In this document: positions 28,098 to 30,974 of the stretch, piece after piece
Layout: each line of letters starts with the position of its first letter
How positions within the stretch are numbered: position 1 is the stretch's first letter
Assembly (NCBI GenBank): GCA_965230995.1
Contig: OZ246398.1
Coordinates: forward strand, 528,213-592,212
Direction: 5' to 3'
Length of the DNA: 64,000 nucleotides
Source of the DNA: an uncultured Candidatus Saccharibacteria bacterium
GTDB lineage: Bacteria > Patescibacteriota > Minisyncoccia > Phycocordibacterales > G965230995
Position numbers and translations under genes: made by a program
Notes under the pieces: generated by a model
What the model was told of the DNA's origin: nothing
Seen by the model: the letters and a program-made list of their open reading frames with translations, nothing else
The model's database searches: none

Positions 28098-30974
28098 ATG
28101 ATAAAAAAGAACACGTACGACCATAAAAAGATAGAGAAGAAATGGCAGAAAAAATGGAACGACAGTTCTCTGTACGTGCAAAAGACTCCGCTTGGAAAAA
28201 CAAAGACTCCTAAAAGCTATGTTCTCGATATGTTTCCATATCCTTCTGGTGACGGACTACATGTTGGACATCCAAAGGGCTACATTGCAACAGATATATA
28301 TACTAGATACAAAAAAATGAACGGGCATAGTATTTTGCATACTATGGGTTGGGATGCTTTTGGTTTGCCTGCTGAAAACTACGCAATCAAGAACAAAATA
28401 CATCCTCGAAAAGCAGTAGAAAAAAATATAAAAAGATTCAAGTCACAGCTAGAAAAAATAGGTTTTTCTTATGATTGGAATAGGGAAATAGATACTACAG
28501 ATCCCGCATATTACAAATGGACACAATGGATATTTATAAAAATGTGGGAGAAAGGTTTGGCTTATGAATCCTTTGAGCCAATCAACTGGTGTCCTTCTTG
28601 TCAGACCGGTCTTGCAAATGAAGATTTGGAAAAAGATGGTACCTGTGAAAGATGTGGTTCTGTTGTCGAGAAAAAACCTATGCGACAGTGGGTTCTTCGG
28701 ATTACAAAATATGCAGAAAGACTTCTAAAAGATATTGATACACTAAAAGAATGGCCAAATTCGATCAGAGAATCACAAAAAAACTGGATTGGAAAAAGCG
28801 AAGGTGCAGAAATTTCATTTGATCTAAAATCAAAAGAGGGTGATTTTTCAGAAAAAGTAAATATATTTACAACAAGACCGGATACGCTATTTGGTGTGAC
28901 ATATATTGTGCTTGCTCCGGAACACAAATTGATTGAAAAGGCTCTTCAATTTGTTAAAAATGAAAAAGAGGTCAGAGATTTTATTTCTAAAGTCAAATCA
29001 AAAACAGAAATAGAAAGAACTGCCGAAGGAAAAGAAAAAAACGGAATAATCCTAGAAGGAATCGAAGCAACGAATCCAATTAATGGTGAAAATGTCCCTG
29101 TATTTATTGCAGATTATGTTTTGGCTACATATGGAACAGGTGCAGTAATGGCAGTACCTGCCCATGATGAAAGAGATTTTGCATTTGCAAAAAAATATAA
29201 TTTGGGAATTAAACAGGTTATCTCAAAAATATTTATTGATAATAAAAATCCACATAGAGAAGGAAAAACAGATACAGAAAGATCAATTGTACATTGTGTT
29301 GTAAAGCATCCAACAGAAGATAAAATAATTATATTAAAAAGCAAAAAATTTCCTTGGAAGACATTGATAATCGGTGGAATTGAGGGAGGCGAAAAACCAG
29401 AAGAAGCAACAAGAAGGGAAGTCATAGAAGAAACCGGCTATACAGATATTAAATCAATAGAAAAAATTGGCTGGAATCTCCATACAAAATTCTATGCTGC
29501 TCATAAAGATGTAAAAAGAAATTGTGATGTAAATGTAATGCTCGTTCAACTTGCGAGCTTAAAAAACGATTCCATTAGTGAATCTGAATCACAGCTACAC
29601 GATGTCTTGTGGGTAGAAACAGAAAAAGCATTTTCTGAACTTGATCCTGTTTGCGAAAAAGAAGAAATAAAAAGATTTCTAGGAGGTGAAATGTCTTCTT
29701 TTACAGGAGACGGAATAATGATTAATTCTGGAGAATTTTCTGGTAAAAACAACAGAGATATTTTTGATGAGATAATCAAAAAAGCAAGCGGAAAGAAAAA
29801 GACAAATTACCGATTGCAGGACTGGGTTTTTTCAAGACAAAGATATTGGGGCGAACCAATACCTCTAATTCACTGTGATAAATGCGGAGTTGTTCCCGTA
29901 AAAGAAAAAGATTTGCCGGTTACTTTACCGAATGTAAAAAGCTACGAGCCGACAGGTACGGGGGAATCACCGCTCGCAAATATTTCTTCTTGGGTAAATG
30001 TTAAATGTCCAAAATGTAAAGGAAAAGCAAAAAGGGAAACAAACACAATGCCTCAGTGGGCAGGATCATGCTGGTACTATTTGAGATTTATGGATCCAAA
30101 AAATAAAACAAAACTTGTAGATCCAAAAATTGAAAAATATTGGAAGAGTGTAGATATGTATGTTGGTGGAGCAGAACACGCAACAAGACATCTCATCTAT
30201 GCGAGATTCTGGCACAAATTTCTCTATGATATTGGAGTGGTATCTACAAAAGAACCTTTCAAAGCTCTTCGAAATCAAGGATTGATTCTCGCAAGTGATG
30301 GCAGAAAGATGAGCAAGCGATACGGAAATGTTATTAATCCAGACGACATCGTAGAAGTCTACGGAGCAGACACAATGAGAATCTATGAAATGTTCATGGG
30401 TCCGTTTGAAGGGGCGATAAGCTGGAGCACAGAAAGTATAATCGGATCTAGACGTTTTATAGAAAGAGTCTGGAGTTTGCAAAATAAGGTTTCTGATTCA
30501 GAAAAACCTTCAAAAGAGCTTTTGCATATTTTGCATAAGACAATAAAAAAAGTAGGGGAGGATATCGAAACGTTTTCAATGAACACCGCAATATCAGCTC
30601 TGATGATTCTTCAGAATGAAATGGAAAAAAATGAAAAAATACCAAAGCAAGTGTTCCTTGATTATGTATCATTGCTTTCACCGTTTGCCCCACATATGTC
30701 TGATGAAATAGGGTCTAGCTTTGGAAATAAAAAATCTTTCTTTCTGATGGATTGGCCGAAATATAATAAAAAATATCTTGTTACAGATTCTGTTAAAATC
30801 GCAGTTCAGGTAAACGGAAAGCTCCGAGATGTGGTAGAAATGGCGGTCGACTCGGGCGAAGAAGAAGTAAAGACAAAATCACTTGAATCTGAAAATGTGG
30901 CTAAATGGATAGCTGGAAAGGAAATTAGAAAGGTCATTTTTATAAAAAATAAGCTTATCAACATCGTACTATAA
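28098..30974 (+). CDS. leuS: Leucyl-tRNA synthetase carrying an inserted Nudix hydrolase domain
   Basis: HIGH (HVGHPKGY), editing-domain TTRPDT and [16 protein letters not shown], KMSKS (KMSKRYGN). A ~158-aa segment between the editing-domain core and the MINSGEF motif is extra. Confidence 0.85.
   Translation: [958 protein letters not shown]
29229..29702 (+). other. Nudix hydrolase domain embedded in LeuRS (aa ~378-535); Nudix box at 29373-29441
   Basis: [23 protein letters not shown] fits G-x5-E-x7-R-E-U-x-E-E-x-G-U exactly; flanking beta-strand-like segments ([27 protein letters not shown]). Confidence 0.7.

Follow-up and report, generated by a model that had tools for sequence, protein, structure and literature searches.

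Why would a leucyl-tRNA synthetase (LeuRS) carry a second hydrolase inside its proofreading domain? The question is raised by leuS, a gene on a 64,000-nt stretch of DNA (the window; contig OZ246398.1, positions 528,213-592,212, forward strand, assembly GCA_965230995.1). In the list of open reading frames (ORFs), leuS occupies positions 28098..30974 of the window on the + strand, which is also the strand of all its parts described below, and its product is a bacterial-type LeuRS of 958 amino acids (aa) followed by a TAA stop codon. We found that the CP1 editing domain of this enzyme contains a complete Nudix domain of approximately 150 aa as a permanent, in-frame insertion. Few enzymes are as conserved or as well studied as the aminoacyl-tRNA synthetases. 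A new catalytic domain is rarely found in them, and when one has been, it has usually led to new biology; earlier examples are the editing domains and the signalling functions of the domains appended to eukaryotic synthetases.

A Nudix domain within CP1

The Nudix hydrolase domain spans aa 378-535 (29229..29702), which is the entire length of its stand-alone relatives (see below). The original prediction had stated that the leuS frame is continuous over 958 codons and that a Nudix domain lies between two conserved blocks of the editing region. Both statements were confirmed. A single ORF runs from 28098 to 30974, positions 29229-29702 are codons 378-535, and the conserved blocks were located at aa 346-374 before the insert and at aa 540-547 (IMINSGEF) and aa 570-589 after it. 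The Nudix box, the 23-residue catalytic metal-binding motif, is at aa 426-448 (29373..29441). It had been called letter-perfect, and it does fit the pattern GX5EX7REUXEEXGU exactly. This was the single match to the pattern in a six-frame translation of the window. The assignment to Nudix also held when the sequence was compared with Pfam: model PF00293 (NUDIX; cut-off 21.1 bits) scored 40.4 bits in the whole protein and 45.0 bits (E=1.3e-11) with the insert alone.

We mapped the insertion point by aligning the protein to LeuRS of Thermus thermophilus (Tt; 1h3n) with phmmer (E=2e-216). Query residues 7-377 aligned with Tt 4-364, and query residues 535-733 then aligned with Tt 377-580. There are therefore 157 residues where the T. 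thermophilus enzyme has 12, a net insertion of ~145 aa. The insertion point is a 12-residue surface loop of CP1 (Tt365-376), ~20 residues after the editing Asp of the AHD motif. Canonical LeuRS enzymes (T. thermophilus 1H3N/2BTE, Escherichia coli 4AQ7/4ARC) have the same domain order and the same HIGH, KMSKS, TTRPDT and AHD motifs, but they have the 12-residue loop where the LeuRS from the window has the 157-residue Nudix domain.

The insertion was also visible in the way that models of LeuRS matched the protein. Pfam identified tRNA-synt_1, the editing domain PF13603 and Anticodon_1 (aa 806-919), with NUDIX lying between two stretches of PF13603. The PF13603 match (217.8 bits) was broken in two by the insert, and the NCBIfam model for bacterial LeuRS, TIGR00396 (leuS_bact), likewise matched in two stretches (1016.5 bits, cut-off 548.4).

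A structural model of the full-length protein was made with AlphaFold2 (AF2) using 78 aligned homologues. The mean predicted local distance difference test score (pLDDT) was 89.5 and the predicted template modelling score (pTM) was 0.79. The insert has the alpha/beta/alpha sandwich of the Nudix fold. In Foldseek, the model matched a solved bacterial LeuRS (2bte) with a template modelling score (TM) of 0.84, normalised to the target. Blocks of 10 residues across the two junctions (aa 371-400 and 521-540) had pLDDT values of 90-95. Because confidence is high at both junctions, the Nudix domain is predicted to be rigidly attached to CP1 and not to hang from it on a floppy tether.

The insert is a genuine part of the gene. 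Contigs assembled from two separate sequencing runs, as well as an NCBI contig of 742 kb, encode exactly the same 958-aa protein. In the survey of orthologues that the original prediction called for, PF00293 was present in 120/120 of the best LeuRS homologues (51-71% identity; where named, from Paceibacterota, Patescibacteria and similar groups) and the strict Nudix box in 107 of them. We found no break in GC content across the insert, and the flanks of 29229-29702 contained no meaningful direct or inverted repeats, merely short AT-rich chance matches. The single ORF, the continuous GC content, the homologues and the independent assemblies rule out a misjoin or a frameshift. An intein or other mobile element was rejected as well: there was no Hint or intein match in Pfam, the flanks lacked repeats, and the junctions, VISK/IFID and MSSF/TGDG, are without the Cys/Ser/Thr and His-Asn signatures of inteins. 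Given this evidence and the high confidence with which AF2 modelled both junctions, we see virtually no chance that the insert is an assembly misjoin, a separate gene fused by a frameshift, or a splicing element of the intein type.

The original prediction also noted that no fusion of a synthetase to a Nudix domain was known to have been described. This stood for the literature: we found no description of one in full-text articles, a coverage that leaves out most subscription journals. The sequence databases, however, already include hundreds of entries with this architecture, with Pfam matches precomputed; their names say no more than 'leucine--tRNA ligase' or 'class I tRNA ligase family protein'. 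The gene in the window is an ordinary member of a large, undescribed and widespread group. Among solved structures, a Nudix domain was present in 0 of the 39 synthetase sequences matched and in 0 of the top 50 Foldseek matches in the PDB. There is a precedent for a synthetase with an extra enzyme domain in the NCBIfam family NF040702 ('isoleucine--tRNA ligase, N-acetyltransferase domain-containing'). That family differs in host, domain and position; here, the extra domain is a hydrolase that lies inside the editing domain, one protein may have as many as three copies, and members of the same subfamily recur with other synthetases. Eukaryotic synthetases with appended domains are a further precedent.

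The Nudix subfamily and its synthetase partners

The insert has relatives that are free-standing. A word-indexed search with the insert alone returned 9 stand-alone proteins and, owing to a limit of the index, missed the copies in LeuRS. The stand-alone relatives are ~157 aa long, are 38-51% identical to the insert over essentially their whole length, and share with it a KHPTE motif and a 10-residue signature, FYAAHKDxNR. Since the match extends over the whole length, it was a whole small enzyme that was inserted. We searched with a profile of this subfamily and recovered, among 1.84 billion, 911 cluster representatives at E<=1e-3 and 268 at E<=1e-10; generic Nudix proteins stayed below the threshold. 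Judged by its sequence, the insert belongs to a small, distinct Nudix subfamily marked by FYAAHKDxNR. The central part of the signature (consensus HKDxNR) reads HKDVKR in the window, at aa 469-474 (29502..29519), and is common to stand-alone copies and to copies embedded in prolyl-tRNA synthetase (ProRS). It is probably a contact to the substrate or to its phosphates.

The subfamily did not fall into any of the named Nudix families that we tried. The best score with the RppH equivalog models (PRK00714) was 25.1 bits against cut-offs of 116-118. For the 8-oxo-dGTPase MutT, the scores were 14.4 bits (TIGR00586, cut-off 97.9) and 15.8 bits (PRK10776, cut-off 148). For ADP-ribose pyrophosphatase, they were 25.1 bits (TIGR00052, cut-off 79.55) and 19.3 bits (PRK10729, cut-off 248), with the box region alone matched. 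The NCBIfam scores for NudI and NAD diphosphatase were far under the cut-offs. A defence or phage origin was likewise rejected, as PADLOC gave a marginal match to an unnamed candidate model and PHROGs gave generic 'nudix hydrolase' families.

Among proteins of solved structure, the matches of the insert by sequence and by profile were weak and mostly driven by the box. The best solved relatives of the subfamily profile (E from 4e-5 to 1e-3, also weak) were Nudix effectors of oomycetes and rusts, DIPP1/NUDT3, and a plant Ap4A (diadenosine tetraphosphate) hydrolase. When profile and fold were both considered, the nearest characterised relatives were the DIPP/NUDT3, Ap_nA-hydrolase, RppH and decapping group. 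Members of this group (Ap_nA hydrolases, RppH/NudH, DIPP/NUDT3 and decapping effectors; 6D13, 7TN4, 9CXX, 1JKN, 8DP8, 8ZJB) are free-standing and not embedded in a synthetase. The insert scores under every family cut-off for the group, and FYAAHKDxNR and KHPTE are specific to the present subfamily; it may act as these enzymes do, but it does not belong among them. Another comparison, 2AZW, is a 'MutT/nudix family protein' of Enterococcus faecalis from structural genomics that is 21% identical to the insert; it stands alone and its substrate is not known, so it gives no help in assigning a function.

We found that the putative active site is conserved even though the domain around it evolves quickly. 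Conservation was counted in an alignment of 78 LeuRS homologues with a single insert. No part of the protein evolves faster than the insert, which has a mean pairwise identity of 39% compared to 73-76% for the catalytic core. Within the box, G426, E441 and E445 were present in 78/78 homologues, G447 in 77, E444 in 75, R440 in 71 and E432 in 70. Outside the box there is a second, equally conserved set of residues, consisting of R395, W420, H469, K470, N473, R474, E497, H501 and W505. K470 and W505 were found in all 78 sequences, N473 in 77 and R474 in 75. The sole exception at N473 is the copy in the window, in which codon 473 (29514-29516) specifies K. This K473 is also present in the independent assemblies, as their protein is identical. 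The conserved basic and aromatic residues would fit a nucleotide substrate with several phosphates, and the persistence of the catalytic residues suggests that the Nudix domain is active.

The subfamily is not confined to the site occupied in the window. The best 150 subfamily representatives comprised 106 LeuRS proteins or fragments, 34 stand-alone proteins and 9 others. There are three sites in LeuRS: S1, where the first catalytic half meets CP1; S2, the site in CP1 that is used in the window; and S3, in the second catalytic half. S1 holds either one copy or two in tandem, and copies at S3 occur in P0141, P0185 and P0235. Some LeuRS relatives have three copies (P0004, P0005, P0008, P0011, P0019, P0020, P0022, P0023, P0028, P0030, P0048 and P0071), and 16 others have two. 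In a nearest-neighbour comparison the copies grouped by site, indicating that they are old paralogues and not recent duplications.

Sites also differed in the state of the box. A canonical box was kept in 180/220 copies at S2 and in 17/18 at S1a. Copies at S1b and S3 mostly have an altered box, for example GGxExGQTAExAAxAEIxEETGY (E to Q; R to A, T or M). The altered type, which was seen in P0016, P0018, P0053 and P0112 and in the second copies of most of the three-copy proteins, dominates S1b and is sometimes the sole copy. These altered-box paralogues may be inactive or changed in function.

We looked at the distribution of the insert among LeuRS genes using the best 80 of at least 600 loci that matched a LeuRS-wide alignment. 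The same CP1 loop was occupied, with the box intact, in four loci (L005, L006, L007 and L009) from metagenome-assembled genomes (MAGs) labelled Clostridia, Bacilli, Mycoplasmatota and Gammaproteobacteria. Once the insert had been taken out, the LeuRS cores of these four were ~60% identical to Bacillota-type enzymes and were not closest to the Patescibacteria clade. Carriers of this type point to independent insertion, to transfer of the insert, or to ancient presence followed by losses. LeuRS from Falkowbacteria, Kaiserbacteria, Berkelbacteria and one Parcubacteria MAG (L012, L013, L014, L018 and L034) had no insert, so the Nudix domain is not universal in Patescibacteria. At three other loci, labelled Patescibacteria or 'Saccharibacteria' (L004, L008 and L010), the tblastn match spanned ~2870-3000 nt and the longest ORF under translation table 11 was 751-823 aa. 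A stop codon within the frame is suspected at these loci, possibly caused by an alternative genetic code or a frameshift.

Members of the subfamily are also fused to, or encoded next to, synthetases other than LeuRS. P0243 is a class II, archaeal-type ProRS in which a Nudix domain of the same subfamily separates the anticodon-binding domain from the C-terminal domain. Five clusters make up the clade with this fusion (P0243 and P0279-P0282; 641-674 aa). The nearest ProRS relatives (70-80% identity; where named, Nanoarchaeota or Woesearchaeota) are without the insert. The copies in ProRS keep FYAxHKxxNR, and the box is degenerate in 3/5. The stand-alone genes of P0125, P0127 and P0128 lie 34-137 nt upstream of thrS, the threonyl-tRNA synthetase (ThrRS) gene, on the same strand and on several independent contigs (L084-L087, L089 and L090; in L084, miaA is further downstream). 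The stand-alone gene of P0129 (L092, from a low-GC 'Rickettsiales' MAG) is 109 nt downstream of a gene for a class Ib synthetase resembling tryptophanyl-tRNA synthetase (TrpRS). Other stand-alone members are found near fpg/polA or recG.

The subfamily is thus fused to, or encoded beside, four synthetases that represent both classes. Such a pattern is hard to ascribe to chance, and points to a feature that synthetases share. It strongly suggests a functional tie of the subfamily to aminoacyl-tRNA synthetases as a whole and not to LeuRS editing in particular.

Nudix is not the only extra domain in these enzymes. In the same LeuRS clade, we observed alpha/beta-hydrolase inserts at approximately query aa 248-253, inside CP1 (P0019, P0022, P0030, P0101 and P0104), HAD phosphatase inserts at approximately aa 640 (P0023, P0028, P0059 and P0071), a Ham1/ITPase insert at approximately aa 228 (P0120), and an insert of ~130-140 aa that matched no named domain at approximately aa 598-603 (P0018 and P0077). 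LeuRS relatives with such inserts reach 1558 aa. CP1 and the neighbouring loops accept whole enzymes, which could be useful for synthetase engineering.

Possible functions of the embedded enzyme

Across hundreds of lineages, the proofreading domain of LeuRS contains an additional hydrolase whose active site is conserved. Together with the recurrence of the subfamily across synthetases, this suggests that tRNA charging is coupled to an activity not yet recognised, be it control of Ap4A/Ap4N as alarmones or caps, nucleotide economy in cells with minimal genomes, or repair of tRNA ends.

We favour the notion that the embedded Nudix domain is an active Mg2+-dependent pyrophosphohydrolase that would clear polyphosphate nucleotide by-products which any synthetase can make, and we put the probability of this reading at roughly 40%. 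By-products such as Ap4A, Ap4N, Ap3A and p4A would arise when aminoacyl-AMP reacts with ATP or another nucleoside triphosphate (NTP) instead of with tRNA, and their hydrolysis would return ATP and AMP. Synthetases are the main source of Ap4A and Ap4N, and Nudix enzymes cleave Ap4A to ATP and AMP (PMC13627108). What synthetases have in common is aminoacyl-adenylate chemistry and the acceptor end of tRNA, and the established link of Nudix enzymes to synthetases is through Ap4A/Ap4N; clearance of by-products is favoured for this reason. Hydrolysis of Ap4A-type compounds, which the original prediction had also suggested, would be chemically plausible and gains indirect support from the linkage of one subfamily to four synthetases. 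In very small cells, whose genomes are reduced and whose nucleotide supply is limited, fusion would guarantee stoichiometric co-expression with the synthetase. The clearing step would be added beside aminoacylation and would not replace editing by CP1; the canonical editing site is fully conserved, and so gives no sign that the Nudix domain has taken over its role.

Several points weigh against this proposal. For a product that diffuses freely, as Ap4A does, a hydrolase in cis offers little kinetic benefit. LeuRS is not known to be among the strongest producers of Ap4A, and TrpRS is reported not to make it. A conserved Tyr ~16-18 residues after the box is a marker of Ap_nA hydrolases. In the window the aromatic residue at +18 is Y466, and across the 78 aligned sequences this column is F in 46 and Y in 28, with a neighbouring column F in 44 and Y in 33; the position is F or Y and not a conserved Tyr. 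In addition, box residues are altered (E to Q, R to A) in ~10-18% of the copies at the site used in the window and in most copies at the other sites, which means that some copies may lack catalytic activity. Lastly, the HAD, alpha/beta-hydrolase and Ham1 inserts in the same clade suggest a host that is generally permissive.

This last point is also the starting point for a different explanation, in which the Nudix domain would be a house-cleaning enzyme, a sanitiser of the nucleotide pool (MutT-like, an NTP or ADP-sugar pyrophosphatase) that is mechanistically unconnected with aminoacylation. LeuRS would serve as its host because CP1 loops tolerate inserts and because an essential, constitutively expressed gene provides compact expression in a reduced genome. 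We regard this as possible but not likely. It would account for the presence of other enzyme domains at several sites in the same LeuRS clade, and the Ham1 fold, like the Nudix fold, is a classical one for house-cleaning enzymes. It would also fit the faster evolution of the insert relative to the core, the location of some stand-alone members near genes for the repair proteins Fpg, PolA and RecG and not near synthetases, and the presence of no second Nudix box in the window. However, a host chosen by chance leaves unexplained the recurrence of the subfamily with four synthetases of both classes and at three sites in LeuRS, and the equivalog models for MutT, NudI, ADP-ribose pyrophosphatase and others scored far under their cut-offs.

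It is rather doubtful, in our judgement, that the domain is instead a tRNA or RNA-end enzyme that acts on the acceptor end of the bound tRNA, for repair or quality control before charging. Its target could be a 5' end with a triphosphate or a nucleotide cap (NAD, Np4A), or a CCA end to which a toxin has added a 3'-pyrophosphate or ADP-ribose. RppH and decapping enzymes are among the nearest characterised neighbours of the subfamily, and the insertion sites flank modules that handle the 3' end of tRNA. Yet many other Nudix classes resemble the domain at least as closely as RppH and decapping enzymes do, mature bacterial tRNAs have a 5' monophosphate, and no RNA-binding extension is evident in the Nudix domain. 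We consider it unlikely that the subfamily is a dedicated partner of synthetases that removes nucleotide-pyrophosphate adducts from the acceptor end of the tRNA they hold. If this were true, it would represent a new form of tRNA-end repair or proofreading in or beside LeuRS, ProRS, ThrRS and TrpRS of ultra-small bacteria and archaea.

A non-catalytic role, as a nucleotide sensor or a structural appendage that modulates CP1 movement or protein contacts, appears very unlikely. Variant boxes (E to Q; R to A, K or M), which make up the minority noted above at the site used in the window, dominate S1b and S3 and occur in some ProRS copies, and the copy in the window has K at the near-invariant N473; these observations speak for such a role. 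In contrast, E441, E444 and E445 are 96-100% conserved, and at S2 the box has stayed canonical in the large majority of copies despite ~39% identity. Retention of the glutamates and of the box through such divergence is the pattern expected of a working active site.

Finally, it is highly improbable that the Nudix domain serves pre-transfer editing by hydrolysing mis-activated aminoacyl-adenylates (Nva-AMP, Ile-AMP), the second suggestion of the original prediction: although it sits in the editing domain, and LeuRS, ProRS and ThrRS all need editing, the canonical hydrolytic site of CP1 is fully conserved, and linkage to a gene for a TrpRS-like enzyme, which has no editing problem, does not fit. 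Aminoacyl-AMPs are acyl-phosphate anhydrides and not compounds of the nucleoside diphosphate-X type, which makes their hydrolysis by this domain less likely; they are not a known class of Nudix substrates.

The host LeuRS and its surroundings

Apart from the insert, the LeuRS appears to be a complete and ordinary enzyme. The HIGH signature of the synthetic site is HVGH at aa 55-58 (28260..28271), in which H55 and G57 were invariant and V56 and H58 were at least 90% conserved among the homologues. The N-terminal part of the CP1 editing domain spans aa 228-377 (28779..29228), as delimited by PF13603 (model positions 1-144 of 185 on aa 228-379) and by the alignment up to Tt 364. It contains the threonine-rich editing motif TTRPDT at aa 258-263 (28869..28886), with T258, R260 and T263 invariant and T259 and D262 at least 90% conserved. 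It also contains the AHD motif at aa 355-357 (29160..29168), which carries the universally conserved editing Asp; H356 and D357 were both invariant. After the Nudix domain, CP1 resumes with its C-terminal part at aa 536-575 (29703..29822), as placed by the alignment from Tt 377 and by the second stretch of PF13603. The second catalytic half, the anticodon-binding domain and the C-terminal domain follow at aa 576-958 (29823..30971), according to the alignment, which extends to Tt 875, and to Pfam. The KMSKS signature is KMSKR at aa 737-741 (30306-30320) and is conserved among homologues. The synthetic (HIGH, KMSKS) and editing (TTRPDT, AHD) motifs are all intact in the translation, and the enzyme looks functional.

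The GC content of the window is 35%. Rfam and tRNA scans of the window found nothing tied to leuS, and the sole RNA gene that they detected in the 64 kb was a tRNA-Ala(UGC) at 15889-15964. Upstream of leuS (25691-27989) there are a YchF GTPase, identified by Pfam, and an ORF whose translation, read by eye, resembles a NifS-like cysteine desulfurase. Downstream (31000-32070) is a protein with a match to Sigma70_r4 and a weak match to HARE-HTH.

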